Source: a phage
Reading direction: 5' to 3' (one strand)
Length of the DNA: 47,035 nucleotides
Sequence record: PZ787841.1
The notes under the pieces are model-generated. The model was not told the DNA's origin and did no database searches. It saw only the letters and a list, made by a program, of their open reading frames with translations. Positions 1-47,035 of this stretch are shown here, one piece after another; positions within the stretch are counted from its first letter, which is position 1; each line of letters begins with the position of its first letter. The translations under genes were made by a program, and so were the position numbers.

Positions 1-168
1 CATGGAAACCATTTCGCCCTTGGAGGTGTCTTTTACCCAACCTGACAGCCAGTATCTTCAACCCCGGCGACGTTGATGCTGCCTTTGTAGTCGGGTTGTT
101 TGCTGCCGGGAGTCTTGCGGTCGTTGGTAAACAACGCGCCACGGTTGGTGTTATCGTATTGTGTCATC
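1..168 (-). CDS. Small conserved hypothetical protein, 5' part only; the ORF runs off the window start
   Basis: ATG at 166-168 behind a GGAGA RBS; reads MTQYDNTNRGALFTNDRKTPGSKQPDYKGSINVAGVE, then continues in another frame (YWLSGWVKDTSKGE). Confidence 0.4.
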
Positions 169-201
169 TCTAAGTCTCCGGTTGTTTGCTGCCTAAAGTA
201 T

Positions 202-231
202 GTTGTACCATAGGGTTGGGGGCCGTGTCAA
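202..231 (-). promoter_or_regulatory. Weak member of the repeated promoter family (TTGACA -35 at 226-231, poor -10), inside a GTTGGGGG/CCCCCAAC hairpin
   Basis: Minus strand reads TTGACA-18-TACAAC; the downstream leader CAACCGGAGAcTTAGAGATG is shared with the copies at 40.2 kb and 42.0 kb. Confidence 0.3.
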
Positions 232-244
232 CCCCCAACTTATG

Positions 245-2103
245 TTATTTGGTTATGACGTCCTGTCGGGTGGCTTCCCACCAGTTTGCTGCCAGTCCAC
301 CGAAGTCGGTGCGAATCGGCACACGCAGACCTTGTCCTGCACCAGTCGCTTCATCTCGCGCAGGTGGCGCACGGTGATGTCGCCTTCGTCCAGCATCGAC
401 ATTCAGTATTCGTCGTGGATGTTGAGCAGGAATCGGTTGTGCGGGCACTCGCTTTCGATGTATTCGGCGATTTCAGATGTTGCGCTTGTTAAAGTCCGCT
501 GCCGTGCCCTGATACACCAGCCCTGACGCCTTGTACGTGAACATGCCGCCGGGGAATGAATCTTGCGCCCATACATGGTCTTCACATAGCCACGGGATTT
601 GGCGAGCGACCCGGCGCGTCTGGCGACCTCACGCACACCCGGCACTGCCCGGTAGTAGGTTTCCATGACTTCCAGTGCTTCGTCACCCGCCTTCTTCGAT
701 CGGCGCTCTTCGCGCTCGCCGTCAAACATGGCAGTTTCCCAGTGGTACGGCAGATTCATCTGCGACGCCAGCTCGCCGCCGCCCATGTTGAACACCATGG
801 CGAGGTTAATCTGCTTGGCGTTGGCACCACCAGCTCAGGGGCCGACCGGGGCATACCCGTCATGTCCGCCACGATTTGGTGCATGTCGAGGTCCGGGTTG
901 GCAGCATACGCATCAATCAGGCTTTTTGGATTTCGGATAATGCGCGAAGATGCGGAATTCGTGCTGGTCAAGGTCGCCGTAGGTCCACTTCTGACCGGGG
1001 TCTGGCAGGAAATCGGGCGCACCAGCGCGGCTACTTCCTTGTCACGGGAAGGTACTTGCTGCAGTGCCGGGCGGGTGTAGGACAGGCGACCTGTTCCGGT
1101 GCCCTCCGTGCCGTCTCCGTTGTCTCCCTTGGTCTGGTTGATGTTCGGGTGCACGTAGCCATTGACGGCGTTTGCGAGGATGTGCCCGCTGATGAAGGTG
1201 TCACGGGTCTTCATCAGTTTACGTGCCTTGAGAATCAGGCCCGCCGCCGGGTGTTTAATCTTCTTCAGCGCTTCTTTGCCGAGTGACGGCTGGCCCGCGT
1301 CGGTGGTGTCGATCGGCGTTCCGTCTTTGGCGTACCACTGGTCGCCCTCTTTGTACGGCGCGAACAGCTTCTCGATGGACCCCGACGGGTTCGGGTTGAC
1401 CTCGAAGCCAGCTATCTGGTTCAGCTCCTTCTGCGTCTGCTGAACTATGCGGTCAATATCCTTCGACACGCTGGTTCGCCAGTTCTTCATCGATGCGGAT
1501 ACCAACACTCTCCGACGCGATGACGTGCGGTTGCAGGCGCATTTCCAGTTTCCAGACCTCGGTCAGGTCTTGGCGGCTGATTTCCTCTTCCTGCCACTGC
1601 CACAGAGCTAGCTCGGCGTCCACACGGGCGTAGCGGCGCATCATGCTTTCCGGGGCGCGGTGGAAGTTCGGCGCTTGTGCTTTGCGGGTCGGTTTGCCGC
1701 GAAAGAGTGCTGCCAGCTCTGCGTAGATATCATCGACCTTGTTCTCGCCGAGGTATTTGCTCGCCAGTGAGTCGAGGCTGTAGCTCATTAGGTGCTCGTT
1801 GATCAATGCGGCACGAGTTTGCGTGCATTCTGCCACCTTCGGGTCGATGCGGATATCGACTGTGCGGAGCATGTGGATATCGAAGCTTATGTTGTGGTTG
1901 ACCGGGCGACGGATTTGCGGCACTTCCTCGCGCAGCCATTGAAAGGCTTTCAGGTCTTTGCGCAGGTCGTAGTATTCGCTGTATCCGTTGGGTAGGGCGA
2001 TTGACACGCCGAACGCCTTGTCACCACGTGCCCATTCCAGACCTGTCGATTCGCAGTCGATAGCCACCTGCTCATAGTTGCGAAGTCTTGGGAAAATAGC
2101 CAT
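245..2103 (-). CDS. DNA polymerase, family A (Pol I-like), with N-terminal 3'-5' exonuclease domain; at least 3 frame breaks
   Basis: Exo motif DCESTGL (ORF 1453..2103); palm-like region in ORF 756..1508; motif C LLNIHDE (ORF 403..798); Pol I-like C-terminus VPI..GGLAANWWEA (ORF 245..448). Confidence 0.85.
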
Positions 2104-2109
2104 TATTTT

Positions 2110-3580
2110 TTCTCCAGTTTTACGGGTTTCATCAGGATAGGGAGGGCGTTGTCACCGTGGACGATGTCGAGGATGTTCTTCGTGCGCGTCACTGCTACGT
2201 AAAAGGTGCGCATTTCGGCATAGATGCCTTCCTTGTTGTCCATGCTCTTGGCGGTCTTGTTCGACACGTCGTTCGATGACTACGACACGCTCGGCCTGAC
2301 GACCCTTGGACCCGTAGAATCGTGGACAGGTGGATGGTCGGCTTCCAGTCGGTCCCGTACTTGGTTTCGATGCTGCGCAGGTATGCCAGCCACGGTCCGC
2401 CCAGCTTGAGGTGGTCCCACGGCTGGCGGGCAGTTATCTTGTCCCAGCGCCTGCTTGTCCACGCGGCCTTGGCGATTTCGGTCATGTTGCGCTTCATCAC
2501 ACGCACCTCGGCGTCGGTCAGTGCCGGAATCCCTATTTCGCAGATGTTGGTACGGGCTTTCGATAAGACGCAGCGATGCTGACACCGCGCCCTGCAGGAG
2601 GCCCGGACGCCCGGAATCGGTGACGTACGGGATTTGACGCTGAATCAGGTATTCCTCTATCTCCTTGCGCATATAGTGACTGCGGTATAGCACCATCGTA
2701 TCCTCGCCATGAGTCAGCTAAGGCTGTGCGGCGCGACGTGATGCTTGATGACACCTTCTTCGTCACGCGGGCGGTATTCTTTTTTCAACACGTGACGATA
2801 CCTGACCGATGACACGTTCTGAAATACGTGGGCATAGTGTGGCACTCGATAGCTCTGTCCGAGAACGACCCTTTCGGCCCCGTACTCTCTCTCAAAGCGG
2901 TGCATACCGTCCGGGTCCGCCCCACCCCATATGTAGATGGCTTGGTCATCGTCGCCAGCGATGGTGATGTTTCCATAGTTCCCGACCAATGTCGTCAATA
3001 ACCGCCCATTGTAAAGGGGAGAGGTCTTGGGCTTCGTCGACGAACAGGAAATCAAGCCGGGGAGCAGGGATATCAAGAGCAGCGCCGAGCATATCCGAGA
3101 GGTCGATGTAGCCATATGCGTTTTTCCAGTTGTCGTAGGTTTGGGCGAAATAGATGAATCGGTCACGAGTGCCGGGCTGGTCAGTTTGTCGTAGGTGTCA
3201 CCGTAGGAAGTCTATGCGGGCGTGCGCCAGACCGTACAGGGTCAGATAGTGGTCGCCTTCGCGTAGTTCTTCCTCTTCCTCCGGGTTCTCGCCACGAATC
3301 TCGATGCCTACCTCCTTCTCGAACTCCTTCAGGTGTGACCAGCCAATCACCTGTTGCTTCGACACGCCGAGCAGTCGGTAGCAGTAGCTGCGAATGGTGG
3401 CGATGTTGGAGGAAGCCAATACCGATGCGCTGCGCCAGTTCTTTGGCTGCTGCTTTGGTGAAGGAGACTAGACCGATTCGGTCGGATTGATTCCGTCGTC
3501 GAGGAGTGCCGAGAAGCGGCGGATGACTCGGTCGATTTGCCTGTGCCGGGAGGCCCATAAATGGCAGTGTACTGGTTCAT
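2110..3580 (-). CDS. UvrD/Rep-family (SF1) DNA helicase
   Basis: Walker A GPPGTGKS at the N-terminus (MNQYTAIYGPPGTGKS); motif III AGDDDQAIYIWGGA and QSYRVP (ORF 2714..3166); C-terminal TIHGSKGLE/VAVTR-like motifs seen after frame stitching. Confidence 0.8.
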
Positions 3581-34947: not shown

Positions 34948-35055
34948 CAGTATTTAGCAAACGAGAAGCTCTCCGTGAACCTCTCGTATTGACCCGCTAC
35001 ATCAGTATTCCCGACCCCCCTCAGGTCAAGGGAAGTACCAGCCGTTTGCACTCTT
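34948..35055. repeat. Conserved ~100-bp element, copy B, directly 3' of the AP2-like gene
   Basis: gcaaacgagaagcTctccgtgaa ... 52 nt ... gaagtaccagccgtttg; internal hairpin ccct-N7-aggg. Confidence 0.6.
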
Positions 35056-35449
35056 GCGTATTCTCCACCACGTCGAGGTTTTCACCCTCTTCTCTGGACT
35101 TCCTCAGGGCGTCGACTACATTAGCCGAGTTTGTACCTTGCTCAGGATTTCGGCCTGAAGGTAGGCCACGTGGGGTTCTGGACAGTCCGACCATCGGATA
35201 CAGCACCACAGACTCGAAGGCCCGCAGGGTATCTTTCAGCCGCTGGTTGGTGCTTTTATTAATCAGGTCACGGAAGGGTGCTGCGGTGCGGTAGGTGGTG
35301 AACAGATGGACGTAGGCACCGACAGACGTCAGTCCACGTGCCACGAAGTAGGTGTTGCGGTCCCCGTGCATCAGGCGGGCCATCCATGTGCCATCGCTGC
35401 GTGCGATATGTACATAGACCTTCGGGGTGTTTTTGGTGTCTTTCATGTT
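35021..35449 (-). CDS. AP2-like DNA-binding domain protein
   Basis: MKDTKNTPKVYVHIARSDGTWMARLMHGDRNTYFVARGL...AYVHLF (W-A-R / YLG-like AP2 pattern); no catalytic domain seen. Confidence 0.35.
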   Translation of the reverse strand, partial: NMKDTKNTPKVYVHIARSDGTWMARLMHGDRNTYFVARGLTSVGAYVHLFTTYRTAAPFRDLINKSTNQRLKDTLRAFESVVLYPMVGLSRTPRGLPSGRNPEQGTNSANVVDALRKSREEGENLDVVENTQECKRLVLPLT

Positions 35450-35494
35450 GTCATCTCTTATCCAGCAGATCCAGCGGCTTGCCGGGGGAAGTTT

Positions 35495-35542
35495 AGTATA
35501 GCACACTTCCCCCAACCTGCTAACCTATGAACAACGTTGTTT
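35495..35542 (-). promoter_or_regulatory. Sigma70 promoter TTAGCA-17-(TGc)TATACT (minus strand) with upstream perfect palindrome AACAACGTTGTT
   Basis: Plus-strand agtata at 35495-35500 and tgctaa at 35518-35523; aacaacgttgtt at 35531-35542. Confidence 0.45.
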
Positions 35543-35622
35543 GGCGTGCTTATACGTTTCCTTATATAAGGATCGCCGGCTGTGTGCCAGTCGTGCCAGG
35601 TCCACCTGTACGACACCGAGGG

Positions 35623-35898
35623 TCAGGCAGCATGAACTGTGGGTTCGTCGCCGGGCGCTACACCCGTGCCATCCCTCGATACAGGCCAGCGGCTGTATAC
35701 CAGTACAATCCCGGCGGGGAGCAGCCATTCACGGTGCGCGATTCGCCCGACGTTCGGACCGAGCAGGTTCGCCCGGTACAATGCAGCACATACATCGGAA
35801 TCGAGGAAGACGGCGAGAAGCAGGGCGATAGCCACGCCAAAAGCGACCTCCCACGTGGTCAGCGCCGCGATTTGCAGCATCAGGTTGTTCGATAACAT
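35623..35898 (-). CDS. Small membrane protein
   Basis: MLSNNLMLQIAALTTWEVAFGVAIALLLAVFL... (C-terminal part of ORF 35623..36180). Confidence 0.3.
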   Translation of the reverse strand: MLSNNLMLQIAALTTWEVAFGVAIALLLAVFLDSDVCAALYRANLLGPNVGRIAHREWLLPAGIVLVYSRWPVSRDGTGVAPGDEPTVHAA

Positions 35899-35920
35899 TC
35901 TCCGGTTTGGGTTTTTGGTA

Positions 35921-36382
35921 CTACGCCCCAGCATAACACGGGGCGCACTGACTAGCAAGCTTGACCATAAGACAAAAGGCACTGACCTTTTTCGGTTCGG
36001 CCTCTTTCGTAGCCTCGCGCCGGGCTTCTTCGGCCTGCTGGCGGATTCGATCGATGCGGGCCTCGGCACGTTTTGCCTTGCGCACGGCCTTGTCCTTCTC
36101 ATTGGTACAGTGAAGGCAGATAAACCGGACGTGACGCCAGACCCGTGGGCCTCCACAGTGCCGGCAGATGGTCTTGTCACGTTTTATGCGCAGGTAAATC
36201 CCGTGCTGGTGGGCGTACATCCGCAGCGCCGGAACCGAGCGATCAAGTGCCGCCGCCATTTCCGCAGCGGTCTTTATTCCCGCACCCGCTACAATGTAGC
36301 TCGTGTTCCCGCTGGGTCCCATCTTCCCCTGCCAGCGGCCCTTTATGGTCCTGTTGTGACGCGGTGCTTTCGAGGTCATCAA
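35921..36382 (-). CDS. Zinc-finger protein, possible DNA-binding regulator
   Basis: Intact 153-aa ORF; CRHCGG...CLHCTNE cysteine pairs followed by a basic, helical tail. Confidence 0.35.
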   Translation of the reverse strand: MMTSKAPRHNRTIKGRWQGKMGPSGNTSYIVAGAGIKTAAEMAAALDRSVPALRMYAHQHGIYLRIKRDKTICRHCGGPRVWRHVRFICLHCTNEKDKAVRKAKRAEARIDRIRQQAEEARREATKEAEPKKVSAFCLMVKLASQCAPCYAGA

Positions 36383-36580
36383 GCAAGTCCCCCATCGGGT
36401 TCTGGATTATGAAGTCCGGCGACGAGGTCTTCTTTGCTGTAGTGCTTAATTTGTGATACAGCCGCGATCGATGCAGGAGACACTGCCTCCATGACACCAT
36501 TCACGTTCACTATGTACGCCGCCCCGTGAACTGGGCTATCTTCAGCGCCCTGTCCATCGAGTTTTCGGTATCGTCGGTTT

Positions 36581-37211
36581 TCAGTTGGTCCACTTGGTAT
36601 CTCCATAAAAGACCAGCCGTTGCTGACTGATGAAATCACACCACCAGACCAGAATGTAGCCGATGAAGTAGGCGGCCGGTTCATCATTCGTCACATCGTG
36701 CTCGATGTCATAGTTCTGGTAGATGTAGTTCACTGCGTGGTAGGCTTCATGGGCCATGCTCGCAGGTTCCTGTCCGGTCCCACAGCGCACCAGCATGAAG
36801 ACGCAGTAGAAGTTAGCGCCCGATAATCGTAGACGCGGCCCCCGGACACCGGACCCATATCCTGAAGCCCGAAGTATGGACCAGCTCCTGCAAATCGTCG
36901 GTATGGACGAAGACCAGCTGGGCCGGGTAAACACCCGCCTGTATCAGGGCGTTGTGGTCCCCGACCCATTCTTTCAGTTCTTCAAAGTTCTTGGCATAAG
37001 CAAAAAGGCGGTTGCCCGCCTCCTCCGGTTTACACGATTTCCGCGTGTTTCGCTTTCTTCGAGATCGACAGGAACGTCTCCATGTCGATATGAACCAGTC
37101 AGCGTTCGCCAGCTTCGGCGGCGGCGCATCTTCCGGCGGTCGGTACATGGTGGCCTCGATCGACCAGGCCGAATTCCAGCGAGAGGTTGATGTACGGCTT
37201 GTTGTGCCCAT
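36581..37211 (-). CDS. HExxH-motif protein (possible zinc metallopeptidase, SprT/ImmA-like)
   Basis: MAHEAYHAV in ORF 36581..36934; upstream part in ORF 36813..37211 in another frame. Confidence 0.25.
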
Positions 37212-37860
37212 CGTTCGGTAGGTTGGTCTTCACCAGCACCGACTCGTCGCGGGCCAGTAGCTCCATCACCTGTTCCAGTCGCTCGGTGTACCCCTGCAGC
37301 TCCAGTTTTTCGTCGCAGGTGTCAGGTAGCGGCGGGTCACGTCATCCAGCACGCCTTCGCGGTCATTCTGGTCAGCCATCTTTCTTCTCCATCAGTTCAT
37401 ACCATACCACATAAGGCCACACTACGATCGCAATAAGGGTGGCGATTGCGAAGGCCCACACTGGCGCGTAGCGCTTGTTGATGACGTCATCCAGTACCGC
37501 CAGCGCCGCCACGAACAGACCAACCCACAGATACCACAGAATCAGCCATGCATCTTCGTCTTCCTCTTCTTCCTGCGTGTCGTAGTCTTGGACAGGTCGG
37601 CGGTCACTACCGGGCGTTCATGGTAGCGGCGGTCGGTCGGGCTTGACAACTCGGCACCCATGAAACGGGCGACCGTGCCGTCTTCCCGGCGCACGTCGTA
37701 GGTGTAGCTGTCGAACATTGGGTGGAAGGTGGCGGCAGCGATAAGCCCCAGCCCGGTGATGGCGGCGTCGGCAGACGACCTGTAAACCACCTTCGTGCCC
37801 ACCGGGTACTTCGGCTTCTTTGCGGTCTTGCGACGGAAGTCTGGCACTTTCTTTTTCATC

Positions 37861-38521
37861 TCAACGTCTCTTGGTCAGTGTAGCCAGTTGCGCCTTAAGC
37901 GGCGCTTTGATGGCTTCGGTCACCGCCACCCGGCCCAGATAGGTCGGCTGGATAGAGCTCGACTCAACGTTCTTTTGTGGGGTGTTCCAGTAGGGCATCG
38001 TCTCCCAGCTGTAGACCCAGCCTTCGAGGTCGCAGGTGATGATGTTCGCCTCGTTGGACACATTATACCATGCCTTCCCCGCGAGTTCAACCCCGTCCCA
38101 CAAATACGGGCTACGCTGCCCGATCACCTGGTCTTTTTCGCAGGCTGTCGGCGAACTGCTTTGCCTTTGCCTGCTCGGTCAGGTGGGCAATAATAAGGCC
38201 GATAAACGTCAACAGACCCCCGCATATCGCCATCGTCGCCAGCATGGCTATCCCGGTTAGTACCTTCTCCATTCGTCGCGCTCCTGTAGTCAGTACGGAT
38301 ATCACACGGCTGTCGGCGCGTGGAAACCACAGGAAATGGTCCTCCTGCGTCTTCAAGTTCCACACCGTCAGCAGCACGTCATACACGCCACGGTAGCCGA
38401 CCTCACGGGCATAGTAGACACCATCTGGCACCTTCTCGTCGTTCTTCACTTCGATGTAATGGTCGGTCAGTTCGGGCCAGTCATGCACCCTTGGCATATG
38501 CAGATAAAAGAACTCCGGCAT
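37861..38521 (-). CDS. Hypothetical protein with a central transmembrane segment
   Basis: ORF 38111..38521 (TGIAMLATMAICGGLLTFIGLIIAHL), continuing in ORF 37861..38127. Confidence 0.3.
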
Positions 38522-38880
38522 GAGCAGGGAGGCACCTGCGTCTCTTCACGCTCCGACTTCGCCAGCGCGATATGCAGGTCGAAATATTCCGCCACTTCGT
38601 CATCGCGGCGCTCAATTGCCCGCACCTGCTTGCGCATTGTCTTCATTGCGCGGCGGTTGGACCGCCACCAGCTATGTTTTTTCATACGTCATCCCATCTC
38701 TTGGCTGCACTGAATTTCGGGGTTTCTGCCCGTGCCACTCGTCCCAAGATGTAGTCCGGGCGGCGGGCGTCTGGTTGTGGACAGATGGCGAGGATACGCC
38801 AGCCTTTGTCCAGAGACCTCTGGATGAGGTCTGTACAAGCATCTTCACACAGCATAAGCTCATTCATTGCCATCAGTCCC

Positions 38881-39381
38881 TCACCGGGCTGGCGGGAGTT
38901 GGTGACGGTATTCGAACATCATGCGACTAGCCCGGCCCAGCTGGTCGATGACCTTCTCGTTCAGCTTAATCAGGCTTTCCATGAAGAGAATGCCCGATTG
39001 CTCCGGTTGCGCGGCGGGTGGCACCACGTCCACGGTCCGGGACTTCCGCACATGCACCTCGATACCGAGGTCCAGCAGGTTCATATACTCGGTATCCTGA
39101 ATCTCCGCGTCGAAGTCGCGGTAGTACGGGTACTGCTCCAGCAGTGAGGCCAGCTTCGTGTGGTCCTGCGTCAGCTCCTGCCAGCTGTTCTGGCGGTTGT
39201 CCTCACCCACCGCGTATTTGGCTGGTGGGTAGTAGCGGAACCCAAAAGGCGGGTCACGCCGGGCGTCCTCGGTCGGCAGCACTCGCAGCTCCGGGTGAAG
39301 CTCTGCCATCTTCTGCTGGGCCGGGGTCAGCTTGTCAGCGTACCCCATAGCCACGTTGACGTCAATCAGCCGGACTTTCAC
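38881..39381 (-). CDS. Hypothetical protein
   Basis: Intact 166-aa ORF MKVRLIDVNVAMGYADKLTPAQQ... Confidence 0.35.
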   Translation of the reverse strand: MKVRLIDVNVAMGYADKLTPAQQKMAELHPELRVLPTEDARRDPPFGFRYYPPAKYAVGEDNRQNSWQELTQDHTKLASLLEQYPYYRDFDAEIQDTEYMNLLDLGIEVHVRKSRTVDVVPPAAQPEQSGILFMESLIKLNEKVIDQLGRASRMMFEYRHQLPPAR

Positions 39382-39635
39382 TTATCACCACCTACATTGT
39401 TGGAAGTTGATGATGGTGATGTGCTGCGGTTTGGGCGCTTTCGACGAAGGCCCAGATGAAGGCACCGACCCAACCCAGCAAGGTCCAGCCCAACAGCAGA
39501 TCGAGGAAGAATACCGCCAGTTTGTTGTGATGCCCGTTCAGGCACGCCGCGATAGTCGGCAGGAAGTACGAGCAGATGATGACGATAAGGGTGGCTGGAG
39601 GAGTCATGATTGTTTCCTCTCTTTCATGGGTTAGG

Positions 39636-40020
39636 TCAGGCCGACTTTTTGGTGCGCTTGGCATATGACCCGCGCGGTTTGTCGGATACACGGCACTCGT
39701 TCCCGGCGTAGTTGAAGCCGTCGTCCTCGCGGAACTCGGCCCGGCCCGGATGTCGTACTCTTTGATGTTGGTAGATGGCACGGGTTGACGTGCTCACGGG
39801 CGCGGCGAGTGGCACCGAACTCGGTGGACTCACCGTAGTGGTTGCGGTTGCAGGTCGGGCAGTTGATGTCGGGATGACGGCGTTGTGGAAGTGTGCATCA
39901 TGGTAGCCGTCCTTCAGCGTGGCGGTGGCGCCGCACGAGTCACAAATAAGGGTGGCGGTGAAGTCGTTCCCGTGCTGGTGGGTGATGGTCTGGACTTTTC
40001 TCTGTATCTCCGGGTGGTGC
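39636..40020 (-). CDS. Zinc-ribbon protein
   Basis: CDSCGAT...CPTCNRNHYGE after stitching; GGAGA RBS before the start. Confidence 0.3.
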
Positions 40021-40035
40021 TGGGTTTATTAGCCT

Positions 40036-40200
40036 TTATACTGGATTGCGGTGCCGTCGAAGTAGATACACATAACCATAGCACCCTTGCGCAGCAGAAC
40101 TGAACCGAGGTCGGTTCTCGAACTCGGTCCAACCCTGCGCGGTCGCTTTTGCCACCGATACTGCCTGCTGGTTAGTTGCTTTCATCTCTAAATCTCCGGT
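40036..40200 (-). CDS. Small protein behind promoter b
   Basis: CAACCGGAGAtTTAGAGATG leader, MKATNQQAVSVAKATAQGWTEFENRP... Confidence 0.3.
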   Translation of the reverse strand, partial: TGDLEMKATNQQAVSVAKATAQGWTEFENRPRFSSAAQGCYGYVYLLRRHRNPV

Positions 40201-40228
40201 TGGTGCTTTGTGCTGCTTCTGAATTTTT

Positions 40229-40300
40229 ACTATACCATAGGGTTGGGGTGTTGTCAATCCCCCAACTTATCTCTATGTAGAAGATGTGACACGCATCACA
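40229..40300 (-). promoter_or_regulatory. Consensus sigma70 promoter TTGACA-17-TATAGT (minus strand) with an upstream TGTGA-N6-TCACA palindrome
   Basis: Plus-strand actata at 40229-40234 and tgtcaa at 40252-40257; palindrome tgtgacacgcatcaca at 40285-40300. Confidence 0.55.
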
Positions 40301-40809
40301 CTCTTAGTGTCCGACCCATATCTTGTCGGTGAACCGCAGCACCGGGACATACAACGACTTGTCGAGGCTTTTGAGTCTGCACGAGGGCATCAGGTTCGGA
40401 CTCCCACACAAACGGCACGTTGTCATCGTAGCCTAGGGCCGGGTCATGCACCACCGGGGTGAAGTCGCGGCAGTCGACCACCAGCGCGTGGAACTCCACC
40501 TTTGACCGCGAAGACCAGATAGATGTTCCCGGTTTCCAGCCAGTGGCCCGCTGCGATGTCCACGGTCGCCGTTCGGATCGACAGGAGACTGGCACAGGCT
40601 TTCAGGTTCGCCGACCGGGTGTACAGGTCGTGGATATTGGTATAAAGCTCTTCCGTGATATCAATATCGGACATCATGAGCAAGCAGGCGGTCACGCAGG
40701 ACCGACGGGTGGCTTGTAGGACTTCGCGGATGGGTTTCATATACATTGCCTTTAGAAGAGAACGATTCGGCGGGTATTGTTGCCCCCGCCGTCGAACAAA
40801 AGATGGGTA

Positions 40810-41665
40810 CTATGGGAGGCGGCCGACGACTTCCAGCACCTTGCACACGGCATCAGAAGACCCGGAGATGGTCGTCGTCTGCTCCGGTGACACCGTCGAA
40901 TAGGTCAGGTAGTCATCGCCGACCACTTCGCCGACCTGCGGCACGCAGTCGATGCCCACCCCGCCGTGGTACACTTCGCTGTGAACGCTGACACCACGCA
41001 TCATGTCGCCGAAGTCGGTGTCACCCGCCACCGTGTCCGCGAAGGTATCGGCACCGTGCAGTCGGTCGATGACCCCCTGCTTCTGGTCGATGGTCATCTC
41101 GTGCAGGCGGACTGTATCCCGTAGGGTATGATTGGCCTGTTGCGCCTCTTCCAGCGCCTCCATCAGGTAGGAACTGCTGCTTGGCCTTCGCCACATCTTC
41201 GTGTGCGTCTGCTATCTCGGCACGCAGACGGGCCACGATACCATCGGCGTGCTTCAGCGGTGACGCGTCTGCAACCACGGCTTCCGGTTCACGCAGGCCA
41301 TCGAACATGCCGGAGATGTCCATGCCGAGCGCCTGCAGGATCACCAGCACCGACATAGCCGAGACTACATCCCGCAGGCCCACGTAGTAGTGGAAGCGCA
41401 CAATCATCTCTGACACGTAGACGTCGGCCTTGTCCAGTTCGCGGGCTTCGATGATGTCCACCGAGTCGCCAAAACGCTGGTTCAGGTACACGATAGCCTG
41501 CCCCACCTTCGGGCTTTCCATCTTGCCGTCCGGTCCTTCCACCTTGACCGGGGTCGCGGTCACCCACGGTGGCTGCTGGTTCACCTGCGGCGGTTGCGGC
41601 ACGTTCGGGGTTTTCTCGCCCACTACTGGACGGCGGCGTTTCATTGGTTCGGTCATTTTACTCAC
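40810..41665 (-). CDS. Hypothetical protein (about 280 aa)
   Basis: ORFs 41021..41665 and 40810..41196 in two frames; no motif recognised. Confidence 0.35.
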
Positions 41666-41863
41666 CTAAAGCTTGCGGATTTTTACTAGCCCATGATGCG
41701 GTGGTCAGGGGCAGGGAGTGCACACGGCCTTTCTTGTCGTCGTGGAAGGCCGCGAAGTCGGTGTCGAGCGGGTTGCGGATACGACGACCAACTTGACATT
41801 GGTGTGCAGGCCGCGAGACTGGTACACAGACCAGATACCCGGAGATGTGGCGCGGATAAGCTA

Positions 41864-41981
41864 CCATAAGACCCCCGCCAGCAGGATCACTGCCAATACT
41901 ACCGCGAAGCCGTACCATGTTGCGCGGCCTGCTTCACGTGCTGGGTTCTCGGTGGTGTACTCGAACAGTGTATTTGTTCAT
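41864..41981 (-). CDS. Small membrane peptide behind promoter c
   Basis: CAACCCGGAGATgaAGAGATG leader, MNKYTV... then WYGFAVVLAVILLAGVLW after a frame break. Confidence 0.3.
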
Positions 41982-42022
41982 CTCTTCATCTCCGGGTTGG
42001 TGGGGGCTTTGCCCCTGAATTT

Positions 42023-42083
42023 AGTATAACATAGGGGTTGGGGCGCGTAATATTTGGTATGCGAAGATGTGACCTATGTCACA
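42023..42083 (-). promoter_or_regulatory. Extended -10 promoter TGtTATACT (minus strand) with an upstream perfect TGTGA-N6-TCACA palindrome
   Basis: Plus-strand agtata at 42023-42028; palindrome tgtgacctatgtcaca at 42068-42083, centred near -60. Confidence 0.5.
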
Positions 42084-42501
42084 GTTTACCCCGCTGCACT
42101 GCCTCCTTCTCGCGTCTGGTCATCATGGTTTTTACCCTAATGGTGGTGTCGATGACCTGCTCGTTGTAAAGCAGGTCCATCCACTGGATGATCGGGCCAT
42201 GTCGCCCTCGAACTTCTGCGACTGAATCTGCCAGTAGGTGACGTGGGGTAGTACATCACCGTCCGGGTCAGGTTGAAGCGCACACTGCGCATTTTCGGGT
42301 CGATTTCGAACTCACAACCCTTGAACTGCCGCCGCTGTCGTCCATCTGCTGGACCAGAGCGGAGGCAATGCCCATAACTGGGCTTGTGTTGTTTTCAGCT
42401 TGGCAGTCATTAGTATTCCACCTTAGGCAGGGATTCCATTTCATAGCGGCGCATAGCGCCACGCAGCACGTTTCCGAGGTTCATGCGTTGCATTCCGGGG
42501 T

Positions 42502-43348
42502 TCAGATGCCGTAGCGGTTCTGCAGGTCGGAGAGGCTGCAGGTTGTTTTCTTGTTGCCAGTCCCCACGTGGTCGATGCCCAGCACTCGCAGCACTTCGGC
42601 GGTGTAGCGGTAGACGTCGGAGATATCCATGCCGCGCAGAGCAGACGCCACGTAGTCCACGATGTAGATGGTCTTGCGCCCGGTAGTAGTGACGCCCAGC
42701 CCGACCGTGTAGCGGTCCATGTCCGGGTCAACCTTGTAGTTGCCGTTGAAGTCCACGCCCCAGTCGCACGCTTCGCAGTTGCAGACGGTGCTTTCGTGTT
42801 CCAGCACTCCGTCCGGGTTCACCTTGCCGAATACCAAGTCTTTGCTGTTGACGCTCGGGCAGGCTTTGAGGGCGAACAGATTAGCGCGGGTGATGCGCGG
42901 TGCTTTGGTCACGCGTTCGATGCGCTCGGCTTCTTTGCGCTCGGCTACACGTTCCATCACTTCGCGGCCTTTCGCGTTGCCACGGTTCATCAGCATAGCC
43001 GCCATGCCGGATGGCTTGCGCGGGGTTTCGTCGTGCTCTTCGGCGATATGCTCTGCCAGCGATTCGGCGCTCAGGAACTCGCAATCGCACTTCTCGCACA
43101 GGTGGGTGTTGTCGAGGTTGAAGGATACCTCGGGTGATTCTTGTCGCCAGCGGCGGACAGGGTTTCGATGGCTTGGTCGAAGCCAACTTCAGCGAGAGCT
43201 TCGAGCGCGGCTACGGTCGCCGGGTCGCTGTCTACTTTGCCAGAACGGATTTTGCGGGTTGCACCATTTTCGTCGGTATAGGTCACCCAACCGTTATTGA
43301 TGCTCGCGCGACTTGCACTAATTTGCCGTCTACGATAGCCTTGCTCAT
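42502..43348 (-). CDS. Zinc-finger protein (about 280 aa), candidate early regulator
   Basis: AGGAGA RBS and ATG at 43346-43348 (MSKAIVDGKLVQVARASI...); HLCEKCDCEF...EHIAEEH and CNCEACDWG motifs; ORFs 43071..43286 and 42502..43005. Confidence 0.4.
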
Positions 43349-43396
43349 TGTGTATCTCCTAATCTCTCATTGCCGGGGGCGTTGCCCCGAATCTTA

Positions 43397-43461
43397 AGTA
43401 TAACATAGAGTTGGGATTTGCGCCAAGCATCGACATAATCGAGAGTGTGACCTTTGTCACG
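43397..43461 (-). promoter_or_regulatory. Sigma70 promoter TTGGCG-18-(TGt)TATACT (minus strand) with an upstream TGTGA-N6-TCACg site
   Basis: Plus-strand agtata at 43397-43402; tgtgacctttgtcacg at 43446-43461; leader hairpin GGGGC-gtt-GCCCC at 43375-43388. Confidence 0.45.
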
Positions 43462-43755
43462 GAACGGCACCATAAAGGCCGTAGAAATGGCAGGCTAACA
43501 GCACATGTATCCGGCACTGGGTGTCATGCCGCAGGAGTGGCAGCACGTGATACAACGTCGTGCCTTTCCCGTTTATGGACGGAGTATACCAGCGGTTCAT
43601 GTGTTTCCACGCGTCCCGTATATCAGCCAGCTCGTTCCCGATATCGTCCGGTATACCCTTGTAGTAGTCGAGGAAGTCATCGACCGCCACATGGTGGGCC
43701 ATCTCCGCCGTGCTGGTCTTTGCAATGAAATTCCCGTCTTTCGACGGGATGAGGA

Positions 43756-44169
43756 TCATACCCTCGCTAACAAACCGAATAGCCATTCGCGTTTAACCTC
43801 TTCGCTGAAGGAGTGGCGGACGGCGTCCAAGTCCATCGTGGTCGGTCTTGATGGAAGGGTCCACGCCAGCGTGCCCTCGATGGCATACCATCCGACACTC
43901 CGACTTCTACAAACAGCCAGACATTGCCCGCCATCCCGTGGCGGCGAAGCCATGAACGTTGGCCCTGCGAAGTGGGTCAGGTCCAGTCGGCCCTTGTCGT
44001 CCAGCTCCCCAGCCTTCATCTCGATAAACCCGTGTTTTGTGCCATAGGTGAAGCACAGGTCAGGGAATGATGGCGCGGTGGCTGGCGACTCGATGCGGTC
44101 GTATGCCACGTTCATGTGCCGAAGGACCGGGCGAAGCTGGTCCCACATTTTCTGCTCCGGTTTACGCAT
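43756..44169 (-). CDS. VRR-NUC-type (PD-(D/E)xK) nuclease
   Basis: FPDLCFTYGTKHGFIEMKAGE in ORF 43756..44214. Confidence 0.45.
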   Translation of the reverse strand: MRKPEQKMWDQLRPVLRHMNVAYDRIESPATAPSFPDLCFTYGTKHGFIEMKAGELDDKGRLDLTHFAGPTFMASPPRDGGQCLAVCRSRSVGWYAIEGTLAWTLPSRPTTMDLDAVRHSFSEEVKREWLFGLLARV

Positions 44170-44171
44170 TT

Positions 44172-44743
44172 TCAGCACCCAAATAGTCGATGCGACCAAG
44201 GTAGTGGTCGGCACTCAGGGTCAGACAGCTCGTTCCACAGGGCCATCGCCGCCGACTTCCAGAGCGGTGATACATGGTCGAGGTACTGGATGAAACGCTG
44301 GTTCAGCCCGTGTAGCTGGTCGCGGGCGTAGCTACCTTCCCCATGCTCCATCAGCCAGTACAGCGCCTCGATGAAATCGGCGATTCGACACATACCTTGA
44401 TCGGGCCTTTGGTGTCGATTGACCGATAGTAGCCATCGCCTGCAGTCGCTTCCAGAGCTTCGAGTTTTGCCTTTGCGCCGAGGTACTGCTTGGTCGGCGT
44501 GTTGATGTCGCCAGTGAAGACTTCCGGCGCATCGTGCCACAAGGCCATGACCGCCACGCGACCCAGCTCCACGTCGGTGGCGGCTTCGCCGGGGTTCCCA
44601 CCAGTGCGGCGTAGCCACAGGTCCATCGCCAGCATAGCCACGGCCCATGAGTGTTGCGCCACGTTCTGTGGACGGGTGGTCGGCACTATCTGCCAGCGGT
44701 TTACATACTGTGCGCGCATCAGGTCGCGGGGGGTCATATTCAT
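44172..44743 (-). CDS. datZ: HD-domain phosphohydrolase, DatZ-like dATP hydrolase candidate
   Basis: HD motif QHSWAVAML...LWHDAPEVFTGD in ORF 44351..44743; small size; sits beside the PurA-homologue and MazG-like genes. Confidence 0.6.
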
Positions 44744-44854
44744 CTTGTTATACCTTCTTCGAGTTGTGTTGTGACAGATAGTGCCGTTTGCGGGCGTCCT
44801 GCGAGGAGAACCGTCTACCGCAGACTACACAGAGATATTTCTCTATCGGTATGT

Positions 44855-45660
44855 TCAGCGGCTGCTGGACCACTCCGACACTCTGGCTACCACACTGATG
44901 CCCTTATGAACCACCGGGGCGACACCTCGAGTGCGACCGCCATCAATCACATGTTGATGCGTGCCGTCTTCCAGCTTCTCCCACACCCGTTTCTCATTCA
45001 TTGCCATCTTGTTGGCTACGGCCTTGGCGATATCGATCCCGGCTAGGTGTCCGATGTCGAGCAGCAGGATAGCCACATCAGCGAATTCCCCGGCGTCGAG
45101 GTATTTGCTGGTGTCCAGCTCGGTTAATTCCTTCTTCAGCTTCAGCACTGCTTCGCCGATGGTGCGCTCGGGGAACGTGCGGTCGGCCCAGCCGGAAATC
45201 AGCTGTTGGACTTCGGCGATTGTTCCGGTTGAGTATTGGCGAGTCGCTCGCGTCTGTCCATCTTGTAGCGCTTTCTCAGGCACTGGTTGCACACGTAGTC
45301 CGACTTCGCCAGACGGCTGGGGCTGAATGTCACGTCCGACTGCAGGCACACGCGGCACACGGGCGGTCCAGCGGCGGTCATCTTGGTCTGGTCGGTTTTC
45401 GGCAATCCATCGGATAAACATAAGTCCACTTGCGGCGTGCGCGGCGTGGTGGAGGTCGGTTTCATGGTAATCGTTGCTCTTCTCTAATTCCAGTATGCGA
45501 CGCTCACTCCATCCAGAAGGCGCTCGACTGTCAGCCCGCGCCAGTTTCATTTCCCGTATTTTGCCTCACCCGTCGCCAGTACCCGCGCCACCTCCTCGGT
45601 GAAGCGCGGGTCAATCAGGCTAACGGGGCTTTGTCGGCATCGAGTTTCGATTGCTTTCAT
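44855..45660 (-). CDS. mazZ: MazG-like nucleotide pyrophosphohydrolase, MazZ candidate; an N-terminal KYG..NW region and an internal CxxC...CxxC segment may belong to it
   Basis: C-terminal GEAVLKLKKELTEL...GEFADVAILLLDIGHLAGIDI...NKMAMNEKR (ORF 44855..45550); ATG at 45658-45660; zinc-ribbon segment in ORF 45199..45465 in another frame. Confidence 0.5.
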
Positions 45661-45673
45661 CGCCCCTGCTCCT

Positions 45674-46781
45674 TATTCCTGCTCGTGTTTCATGTCGGTG
45701 AAGATGTCGTTCACGGTCGCGCCGTAGCCGTAGTATGTAGCCAGCGGCATATTGCCCGGAATCCCGGCGACCATTGCGGCACGTTCGATGGTTCCCACCA
45801 CTCAGCCACTTCGTCCGGCGTCATGTAGTTGGAGAAGTTGAGGAATACTCATCCGGGCGAATCGACTTCGAGCGCCGCCAGCGTCTGCAGGTAGCCGAAG
45901 GTGAAGATGCGGCGCGGGAGCTTGGTCACGGTGGTCAGTTCCGCTTCCATTCCGAGGTCTTTCTTCCAGTCCAGTTCCTTCTGGTCTTCGTAGTACGGGC
46001 CGGACCAATTTGCTCACCTGCTCGTTGTTGTAGCGGTTGGCTACGCGGATTGGGTAGGTGCGCATCGTGGCGATCGTGGTCTCGACGAAGGCCAGCGGCA
46101 GGTTGACGTCGACACAGACCTGTGCCGGGGTGCACTCGCGGGAGGTCGCATACGGGTAGAAGCCGTTGTTGATGCCGAGGCTGAGTCCCTGCGCACCCTC
46201 CACCGAATGCGTTCCGCGTCGTAGACTACCGACATATACTCGGCGTTGTTGGCGGTGCTGGTGGAGATGCCCGCTTCACGGATTGGCTTGCTTGTAGATG
46301 TGCTCTTCCATGTAGTCGGCGTTTCCGCCTACCGTGTTGTTGTCGTCCGGGTTGCGCGATGGATTTGGAAATCATCGCAGCACCGCAGCCTTTCTTGGTA
46401 GACCCGATTTTGGTCATCGGGCCTGCTTCCTCTTCCACGTGCTTCTGCATGATAATAGCAGCGGAGGAGTGTAGCATGATGCGTTTGCCGCGCAGCAGGT
46501 CCACACAGGACAGGATTTCGTCGCGCAGCAGTTCGACGTTCATCTGGCTACCGGGGCCAATCGGCACGGTGGTTAGCTTCGGCGATACGATGCCGTTTGC
46601 CAGCATGCAGTGGACAAGCTTGCGGCCTTCTGCATCGATGAGGTGTGGCCTGCGTTGGCACTCCACGCGGTCATCACTACGTCCGGCTGGTCGCGCGGGG
46701 CGACGTAGCCCGCAATGAGACCCTTGCCAGTGCTGCCAACTGCGCGTCAACGATGATAGTGGCTTTTTGTGTTGCTTTCAT
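45674..46781 (-). CDS. purZ: Adenylosuccinate-synthetase homologue, PurZ candidate (N6-succino-2-amino-2'-deoxyadenylate synthase)
   Basis: ATG at 46779-46781; P-loop-like GSTGKG, ANAGHT (GHNAGHT-like), LVHCMLANGIVSP, FEGAQGLSLGINNGFYPYATS (ORF 45802..46203); stop TAA at 45674-45676. Confidence 0.7.
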
Positions 46782-47035
46782 TTTATTGCTCCTGTGCATT
46801 TGCACGTTGTTTTAAGTTTAGGGTTGTACTGCGGTACTGCGTGTTCTCGGAGTGGGATGTCGTCGTCGAAGTCCATCGGCGGTTCGCTGCTCTGGTTCGA
46901 CGGGTTGTTGCCCCATCCACCTTGCTGCTGGTTCTGCTGCGGCTGCTGGTTGGCACCCAGCTGGCGCGGACCCTGTGCACGGGCCTGTGTGTTCTGGCGG
47001 GTGTTGGCACCGGGGCCGTCTTTCGGTTCTACCGA
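46778..47035 (-). CDS. ssb: Single-stranded DNA-binding protein, C-terminal part only (gene starts beyond the window end)
   Basis: Gln/Gly/Pro-rich tail ending PPMDFDDDIP, characteristic of the bacterial-type SSB C-terminal tip. Confidence 0.6.
   Translation of the reverse strand, partial: SVEPKDGPGANTRQNTQARAQGPRQLGANQQPQQNQQQGGWGNNPSNQSSEPPMDFDDDIPLREHAVPQYNPKLKTTCKCTGAIK

Follow-up and report, generated by a model that had tools for sequence, protein, structure and literature searches.

Sequence record PZ787841.1 (47,035 nucleotides (nt), referred to here at its full length as the window) was analysed at the locus between purZ and datZ, where a mazZ-type pyrophosphohydrolase gene is found that appears to harbour a second, zinc-ribbon-encoding gene nested in its +1 frame. 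All relevant coding at this locus is on the minus strand. In phages that carry 2-aminoadenine (Z) in their DNA, the established role of MazZ-type enzymes is the removal of dATP and the supply of dGMP to PurZ. The window represents an apparently complete phage genome of ~47 kb with a full Z-DNA module, encompassing, in order, DNA polymerase I, a small SSB-like gene, purZ, mazZ and datZ. A protein search retrieved P0013 (305 amino acids), which is encoded on the Logan contig L020 (47.5 kb). This contig is ~90.6% identical to, and collinear with, the window, relative to which it is circularly permuted (L020 positions 1-3021 correspond to window positions 3011-1, and L020 from 3022 onward to the window from 47035 downward). 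Relatives retrieved by a DNA search, at 70-75% identity, were Salmonella phage PMBT28, Pseudomonas phage PSA28 and Klebsiella phages K21lambda1 and VLCpiS6a.

The host gene was mapped by tblastn, in which four intact relatives aligned across three frames of the interval 44748-45660. The purZ-mazZ-datZ order is common to all relatives, and in the four GenBank relatives the intervening gene is a single uninterrupted open reading frame (ORF) of 290-294 codons. An earlier note on this locus, made from the raw sequence, had described a GEAKYG and NWRG segment, a MazG-like domain and a CRVC...CNQC ribbon, all of which are present on the minus strand. It had also placed the N-terminal segment and the MazG-like domain in one frame, an arrangement found only in the intact relatives, as the raw window is split by a deletion after position 45505 and also by a TGA codon. 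The end of the gene had been set at 44855, which is a false stop produced by a deletion after 44885; the true span is 44748-45660 (Table 1).

The N-terminal domain corresponds to Pfam family PF18909 (dGTP_diPhyd_N, also known as DUF5664), which was recovered above cutoff in the PMBT28 orthologue (residues 3-97, E=1.1e-24). The 231-amino-acid fragment encoded by the window retains the C-terminal third of this domain, with a match (E=0.001) that falls below cutoff because the frameshift truncates the fragment. In the AlphaFold2 (AF2) prediction of P0013, residues ~10-100 were modelled with predicted local distance difference test (pLDDT) values of about 80-96. The catalytic domain, PF04447 (dATP-dGTP_PPHyd, or DUF550), was detected in the window ORF (E=3.9e-7; 30.7 bits against a cutoff of 23) and at residues 154-237 of the protein of intact relatives, and the family was furthermore assigned to phrog_801 ('dATP/dGTP pyrophosphohydrolase') in PHROGs. 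A profile of 17 family members matched the MazZ protein of phage S-2L (PDB 7ODY) with E=1.6e-27, and the AlphaFold model aligned to the same structure with TM scores of 0.84-0.87, normalised to the target, and 38-40% identity (Foldseek). A MazG fold, the absence of which the earlier note would have taken as refutation, was thus recovered, and the label of MazZ candidate proved right in both function and homology.

Between these two confidently modelled domains, linker residues 102-143 of P0013 were predicted at a pLDDT of 33-41 and without secondary structure. The last ~25 residues of the protein form a C2H2-type finger of beta-beta-alpha topology, modelled at a pLDDT of about 89, which gave weak Foldseek matches to CTCF fingers (E about 1-2, root-mean-square deviation 0.3-0.5 over 26-28 columns); no mention of a C2H2 finger in a mazZ-type enzyme was found in the literature searched. 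This finger is in frame throughout the PMBT28/L020/L021/L022/L026 branch and occurs as a longer-spaced variant in Kokobel2, while unrelated C-terminal domains take its place in the Acinetobacter and P0024/26/27 lineages. Judged from these sequence matches, the host gene is assigned as the mazZ-type enzyme of a PurZ (2-aminoadenine) siphovirus, consisting of DUF5664, a disordered linker of ~45 residues, DUF550 and a C2H2 finger. The composite architecture is less unusual than the earlier note had supposed, as the DUF5664-DUF550 fusion was already described in PurZ phages, in SH-Ab 15497 (PMC12884076). The SH-Ab 15497 enzyme is reported, as cited in that paper, to convert dATP and dGTP to monophosphates, and E. 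coli equipped with the purZ-mazZ-datZ cluster of PMBT28 incorporates Z (PMC12944874; bioRxiv 10.1101/2025.10.22.683976).

The orthologous gene of phage VLCpiS6a (S6a_00032; L004 1941-2825) carries the annotation 'endolysin; inhibits RNA polymerase', which is very probably wrong and seems to have been taken over from phrog_2252 or phrog_5033, two families whose matches to the mazZ orthologue are confined to its DUF5664 domain.

Table 1. Features of the mazZ-type locus and of the candidate nested gene, in window coordinates
Feature	Position	Strand	Remarks
Host gene, mazZ-type dATP/dGTP pyrophosphohydrolase	44748..45660	minus	~305 codons once repaired; frame-broken in the window
N-terminal domain PF18909 (dGTP_diPhyd_N / DUF5664)	45365..45654	minus	Pfam; coordinates approximate because of indels
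Inter-domain linker, dual-coding segment	45222..45364	minus	Host frame disordered; +1 frame encodes putative zinc ribbon and basic tail
Catalytic domain PF04447 (dATP-dGTP_PPHyd / DUF550), MazG fold	44945..45196	minus	Pfam, profile, Foldseek
C-terminal C2H2-type zinc finger LCVVCGRRFSSQDARKRHYLSQHN	44763..44834	minus	In the enzyme frame in relatives
Nested +1-frame ORF, 88 codons plus stop	45199..45465	minus	From distal ATG 45465; four-cysteine (C4) ribbon and basic tail
Ribbon core CRVCLQSDVTFSPSRLAKSDYVCNQC	45280..45357	minus	CRVC...CNQC, within ORF 45199-45465
Stretch inside the ribbon peptide, ...SPSRIAKKDWICNQCLR...			
Alternative ATG	45381	minus	8 codons before the first ribbon cysteine (Cys1)
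N-terminal ORF, 37 codons, MKAIETRCRQ...GEAKYGK*	45547-45660	minus	Same frame resumes at NWRG after the TGA
MazG-like-domain ORF, 231 codons	44855-45550	minus	Second frame of the raw window
Inserted G, frameshift	45648	minus	Alignment to L020
Deleted A	after 45622	minus	Offsets the inserted G; alignment to L020
In-frame TGA, codon 38	45547..45549	minus	6-nt reverse-complement block relative to L020
Deleted A	after 45505	minus	Splits the N-terminal frame from the rest of the gene
In-frame 3-nt deletion	after 45469	minus	Alignment to L020
Deleted A	after 44885	minus	Detaches the C2H2 tail; false stop at 44855

Over the linker, the +1 frame of the four intact GenBank relatives reads PPCRECGS.EAVYSPSRIAKKDW.CNQCLRRRHRAAKKER. 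The occurrence of this ribbon was assessed in 24 sequences, including the window, which were drawn from IMG/VR, Logan, ENA and NCBI contigs and from GenBank phages. A ribbon of the form CRxC-x17-24-D[WY]xCxxC, followed by a basic tail, was present in the +1 frame at the same place in 22 of them, comprising the enterobacterial clade, eight sequences of the Acinetobacter clade (seven GenBank phages, SH-Ab 15497 among them, and Logan contig L030) and four distant metagenomic members, whose enzyme domains are no more than 35-38% identical. All four cysteines are invariant across the 22 aligned ribbons (C-R-x-C...D-[WY]-x-C-x-x-C). In the six-frame translations of all compared loci and of the whole window, the signature CR.C...D[WYF].C..C turned up exactly once in each ribbon-bearing locus, invariably with the same position and frame, and had no other occurrence; the ribbon is thus far beyond chance. 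A C4 ribbon in the enzyme's own frame was found in none of 67 called family proteins and in none of the 24 DNA sequences. The nested gene is unannotated in all records examined, and the literature searches returned no earlier mention of zinc, overlap or frameshift in mazZ/DUF550.

Two further observations concern the same stretch. The P0027 lineage (L028 1264-2364; also P0024 and P0026) is of enterobacterial type, with a similar linker length and a longer, different C-terminal domain, and represents a natural ribbon-less comparator. In the PMBT28 sub-lineage formed by P0001, P0003, P0008 and P0012, for which the comparison covered the host-frame proteins, a six-residue insertion of the GLPMGNIP type precedes the ribbon-coding stretch and is predicted, when read in the +1 frame, to extend the region N-terminal to Cys1.

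The selection acting on the two frames was analysed from the minimum number of changes per alignment column, binned by host-frame codon phase within five clades. In the sequences encoding the two domains, changes accumulated at the third phase, with counts for phases 1, 2 and 3 of 77/41/209 in the N-terminal domain and 73/42/316 in the C-terminal domain. The ribbon segment showed 88/45/32, compared with 150/83/525 for the domains together (chi-square p=2e-31, a value that overstates the independence of the phylogenetically related sequences). Variation in the ribbon segment was thus highest at the third position of the +1 frame and lowest at that of the host frame, with the same direction in all five clades. 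Estimates of dN/dS (Nei-Gojobori) for this segment, which are biased where frames overlap, amounted to 0.03-0.3 in the +1 frame and about 1-6 in the host frame for most pairs. Six alignment columns are invariant in the +1 frame, compared with one in the host frame. At the invariant +1-frame residues synonymous codons are used (TGC and TGT at all four Cys positions, five codons for Arg, GAC and GAT for Asp), excluding a purely nucleotide-level element. On this comparative evidence, the +1 frame is judged to be under purifying selection on its amino-acid sequence.

The openness of the host frame was assessed by fixing the ribbon peptide and resampling its synonymous codons in 12 representatives. 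Under this procedure the host frame was open in 0-18% of resamplings (0-5% for 10 of the 12), while it is open in all 12 observed sequences; the third frame carries one to four stops over the ribbon segment. Both frames are therefore maintained, the +1 frame as a structured ribbon and the host frame as an open, disordered tether. The host frame would be selected only for its openness as a flexible tether.

With regard to expression, four ribbon-bearing sequences (L013, L014, L015 and L027) contain a +1-frame stop codon and, no more than a few codons downstream, an ATG, which is located 5-19 codons before Cys1. These ATG codons are preceded by Shine-Dalgarno (SD) sequences at a spacing of 7-8 nt, with an anti-SD duplex of -8 to -12 kcal/mol, and the predicted products have a length of roughly 50-80 residues. 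Such an arrangement of SD and ATG after a stop reads as the signature of ordinary independent initiation. The nested ribbon would accordingly be a separate polypeptide of roughly 6-10 kDa, translated from its own start. For the clade of the window, this start is probably the ATG located 36-38 codons upstream, or else a proximal but weak one.

The affinities of the ribbon were explored by profile and structure searches. Ribbons of the distant branch matched phrog_1035, 2340, 2633 and 2255 (endonuclease VII, endonuclease or HNH endonuclease) with E-values from 1.6e-5 to 3e-3; these matches were restricted to the ribbon module, spanning, for example, profile positions ~6-64 of 171. Matches to the Lar-like families phrog_5558 and phrog_6422 were obtained for L027 (E=5e-5) and L014 (E=2e-3), and the PMBT28 ribbon matched the Lar-like profile weakly (E=0.05). 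The nested ORFs end 20-45 residues past the last Cys and lack a nuclease core, so that they would be relatives of the endonuclease module and not members of the endonuclease family. The PMBT28 ribbon, used as the query of a word-based search in 5.8 billion proteins, returned nothing, an exhaustive phmmer search of 1.84 billion representatives with the window ribbon ORF gave no match at E<=1e-3, and a profile of 16 ribbons found nothing at E<=1 in the 5.8-billion-protein database. Against PDB sequences, the ribbon profile retrieved only generic PHD, rubredoxin and RanBP-type fragments (best E=0.0056 over 20 residues), and a Pfam scan of each ribbon gave only sub-threshold matches to assorted zinc-ribbon families.

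A degenerate DNA pattern scan of IMG/VR yielded 43 matches, most of which were out of frame or members of an apparently unrelated family of small double-ribbon ORFs; only the L014 contig and L074 were informative. L074 (positions 1825-2292) is located on an unrelated 59-kb viral contig and encodes a 155-amino-acid, full-length phrog_2340 endonuclease (E=5e-21). Its N-terminus carries the ribbon CRAC...FTPS...SKSDWICRDC, which hhalign aligned to the ribbon profile at 93% probability, a score that is partly circular since L074 was selected by the invariant residues. By sequence likeness, L074 appears to be the best lead to the ancestry of the ribbon. The double-ribbon ORFs recovered from IMG/VR (L039, L040, L045, L048-L052, L057, L068 and L078) are small, with 68-134 amino acids and the pattern CR[HW]CG...DWLC..C.RYQD...CP.CG.

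In the window, mazZ is interrupted by four 1-nt indels and one TGA, while the gene is intact in all relatives. The insertion at 45648 and the deletion after 45622 form a +1/-1 pair that scrambles the KLDADKAPL sequence at the N-terminus, and repair of the gene against L020 yielded a protein with 95.4% identity to P0013. The TGA codon arose by exchange of a 6-nt block (window 45546-45551) for its exact reverse complement, TACGG-CATTTC-AAACTGG in L020 being TACGG-GAAATG-AAACTGG in the window, and the change is thus a micro-inversion and not a simple substitution. The comparison with L020 covered window positions 1-3011 and 35021-47035, representing ~15 kb and 25 genes, of which 24, including those for DNA polymerase and PurZ, are broken in the window by a total of 116 frameshifting indels and six premature stops. 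Single-nt (93) and two-nt (18) events account for 111 of 123 indels, and among 63 one-nt deletions A was lost 32 times and T eight times on the coding strand, where A is only 1.4-fold as frequent as T. The 1,108 within-gene substitutions fall predominantly at the third codon position (741, compared with 230 and 137 at the other two), a bias as expected for the normal divergence of genes under purifying selection. For Z-containing DNA (dZ-DNA), a marked loss of accuracy in nanopore sequencing is reported (PMC13128860). As the same breakage affects 24 of the 25 genes, the breaks in mazZ reflect a quality problem of the entire sequence. Their most likely cause is error in assembly or basecalling and not a property of mazZ, and a gene-by-gene interpretation of frame breaks in the window is unwarranted.

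The joint reading of the locus as a mazZ-type host gene with breaks caused by sequence errors, and a nested +1-frame zinc-ribbon gene in its linker, is considered likely, and the nested gene in itself appears well supported by comparative evidence. A number of points weigh against this interpretation. Two of the 24 sequences lack the ribbon, namely P0065, which has a short spacer, and the P0027 lineage, which has stops in the +1 frame; the ribbon is dispensable in both, and neither the enzyme nor Z-DNA synthesis therefore depends on it. Neither the clade of the window nor the Acinetobacter clade has a good proximal start. The window ATG at 45381 lacks an SD, and in the Acinetobacter and enterobacterial clades canonical starts are found only 36-57 codons upstream, where the sequence also encodes the conserved EK[GS].D motif of the host protein, so that the distal ATG or TTG with its SD does not constitute independent evidence. 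The upstream openness of the +1 frame is only mildly improbable (0.2-0.5 per lineage by resampling), and the support for translation of the ribbon is comparative in kind. The ribbons of the window and of the enteric and Acinetobacter phages gave no significant PHROG or Pfam match, and the suggested link to endonuclease ribbons has a short Cys-rich motif and the ribbons of the distant branch as its basis. The ribbon model obtained with AF2 from a single sequence is weak (pLDDT 60), with no Foldseek match at E<2. Finally, the technical origin of the indels in the window is something that we infer.

The earlier note had considered two possibilities, a three-part enzyme broken by compensating indels and a small nested zinc-ribbon gene. 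The three-part enzyme, in which the ribbon would be joined to the polypeptide through compensating indels or two programmed frameshifts, has in its favour that compensating indels do occur elsewhere in the gene (45648 and 45622) and that a ribbon between two domains is architecturally plausible. However, the window contains no frameshifting indel between the two domains, and the ribbon is out of frame in every intact relative, the same frame relationship being found in at least 20 independently sequenced intact genomes or contigs. The lack of an in-frame C4 ribbon in any of the 67 family proteins, and the persistence of a host frame that is open more often than expected, to no purpose if it were skipped in translation, argue in the same direction, as does the SH-Ab 15497 DUF5664-DUF550 protein, reported to be active on dATP and dGTP (cited in PMC12884076). 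The three-part enzyme is hence effectively refuted already, and next to no probability is assigned to it. The nested gene, conversely, was borne out by conservation, codon phase, dN/dS, synonymous codon usage and the SD and ATG of the distant branch. An insertion of an intein, intron or homing element was also considered and rejected, as every relative has an unbroken host frame here and no indels flank the segment. That the +1-frame ribbon is not translated at all, and represents a nucleic-acid element, a consequence of host-frame constraint or a recently dead endonuclease relic, would agree with the two ribbon-less lineages and with the absence of the peptide from 15 billion predicted proteins, in which gene finders never called it. 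Yet the synonymous codons at invariant residues, five of them for Arg, are indicative of selection on amino acids, the variation pattern is opposite to that expected from host-frame constraint, and a dN/dS of about 0.1 across clades with 35-40% enzyme identity is incompatible with a dead relic, rendering this explanation very improbable.

Two other explanations are each regarded as unlikely, although they retain more weight. One concerns the mode of expression, in that a +1 shift near the DDRRW codons, made by some of the ribosomes translating DUF5664, would generate a DUF5664-zinc-ribbon fusion of about 15-17 kDa, terminated by the +1-frame stop, alongside the full-length enzyme. The conserved frame switches directly after the invariant DDR motif, and the +1 frame of the enterobacterial and Acinetobacter members is open for 36-73 codons upstream with no convincing proximal start; in Kokobel2 this openness is improbable by chance (0.013). 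In most lineages, however, chance alone leaves the upstream frame open in 20-50% of resamplings, and no shared slippery motif was noticed at the junction when the sequences were read, no formal scan having been run. Moreover, L013, L014, L015 and L027 carry a +1-frame stop 10-23 codons before Cys1, followed by the strong SD and ATG, which confines a possible shift site to 10-23 codons or fewer. We place about as little confidence in the other explanation, that the frameshifts and stops of the window are biological and mark a decaying, non-functional prophage or remnant. Breakage of 24 of the 25 genes with six premature stops would fit such decay, one of these stops resulted from an exact 6-nt inversion, which is unusual as an error, and about 400 substitutions could be unconstrained. 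Nevertheless, the substitution bias (741 versus 230 and 137) points to a lineage under purifying selection, and the window apparently covers an entire phage genome of ~47 kb in collinear order. The predominance of 1-2-nt indels (111 of 123) and of A among one-nt deletions (32 of 63) furthermore resembles a systematic technical bias, in line with the known inaccuracy of nanopore reads of Z-DNA (PMC13128860).

Under the preferred reading of a nested zinc-ribbon gene, its product is probably a small, zinc-dependent nucleic-acid-binding protein, likely to bind DNA, as suggested by analogy. The ribbon would bind zinc through its four Cys residues, with a basic helix following it, and would contact nucleic acid, most likely DNA, in the manner of the homologous N-terminal module of small phage endonucleases, acting beside the co-transcribed replication and Z-nucleotide module. 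Of the two frames, that of the featureless linker is probably the more recent one, given that the ribbon is part of an older family of modules. A more far-reaching joint reading, which is tentative and must be called improbable as a whole, views the ribbon as the domesticated DNA-binding module of a former endonuclease-type gene, combined with a read-through fusion of the enzyme and a role in the Z genome. The endonuclease-type gene would once have been located between separate DUF5664 and DUF550 genes, the enzyme genes would have fused by read-through, creating the linker de novo, and the ribbon would now regulate purZ-mazZ-datZ-dpoZ, or recognise or protect Z-substituted DNA. No free-standing ribbon gene was observed beside split DUF5664-only or DUF550-only genes in L006-L011 and L016-L019. 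If this far-reaching reading were true, native mazZ constructs used for Z-DNA engineering would silently co-express a second functional protein.

The purZ-mazZ-datZ cluster constitutes the minimal toolkit to explain and engineer the replacement of adenine by 2-aminoadenine, and its genes have been characterised biochemically and transferred to E. coli and yeast (PMC12884076, PMC12944874, bioRxiv 10.1101/2025.10.22.683976, PMC13128860). A second selected frame in mazZ would mean one more protein than annotated in most PurZ siphoviruses of this type, and native and codon-optimised mazZ constructs would not be equivalent, because optimisation would destroy the ribbon. Mutants that cleanly separate the two functions are readily designed, as the third base of each host-frame codon doubles as the second base of a codon in the +1 frame; the change of a host GTG to GTC, for instance, retains Val, while the +1-frame TGC (Cys) becomes TCC (Ser). 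The locus moreover offers a tidy case of a putative overlapping gene that is confined to a disordered linker and was missed by gene callers and protein databases of 15 billion sequences.

Several known systems resemble parts of this locus. Small zinc-ribbon proteins of phages are represented by the Lar-like restriction alleviation proteins, which are of similar size, but the matches to these are weak and restricted to the Cys-rich core, and the likeness is one of sequence. Small phage endonucleases (phrog_2340, 1035, 2633, 4723 and 2255) share the CxxC...[FY]..S...D[WY].CxxC ribbon followed by a basic stretch; the nested ORF differs in lacking a nuclease core, and the window ribbon is not significant against their profiles. 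As for the host enzyme, MazZ of cyanophage S-2L (7ODY), a MazG-like (d)GTP diphosphohydrolase, has a homologous C-terminal domain and the same role in the Z pathway, but is a single domain of ~100 residues without DUF5664, linker, C2H2 finger or nested ORF. A further parallel is the SH-Ab 15497 enzyme (P0035), of the type named mazZ in work on PMBT28 and ~37% identical to P0013, which has the same order of PF18909 and PF04447, the same position between purZ and datZ and a nested +1-frame ribbon. It differs in its length of 385 amino acids, in a linker that is longer and in its C-terminus, where an unrelated extension replaces the C2H2 finger; in the window the gene copy is frame-broken.

Phage genes embedded in another gene in a different frame are exemplified by Rz1 within Rz of lambda, and by B within A and E within D of phiX174. 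Both the two-domain enzyme and the phenomenon of embedded genes are thus already known, while this particular embedded gene is new with respect to the literature searched. As in lambda and phiX174, a small gene would lie wholly inside a larger one, on the same strand and in another frame. In contrast to those overlaps, the putative ribbon gene coincides exactly with the disordered linker between the domains of a fused enzyme, and it is the embedded frame that looks older and structured, whereas the host frame looks younger and featureless.

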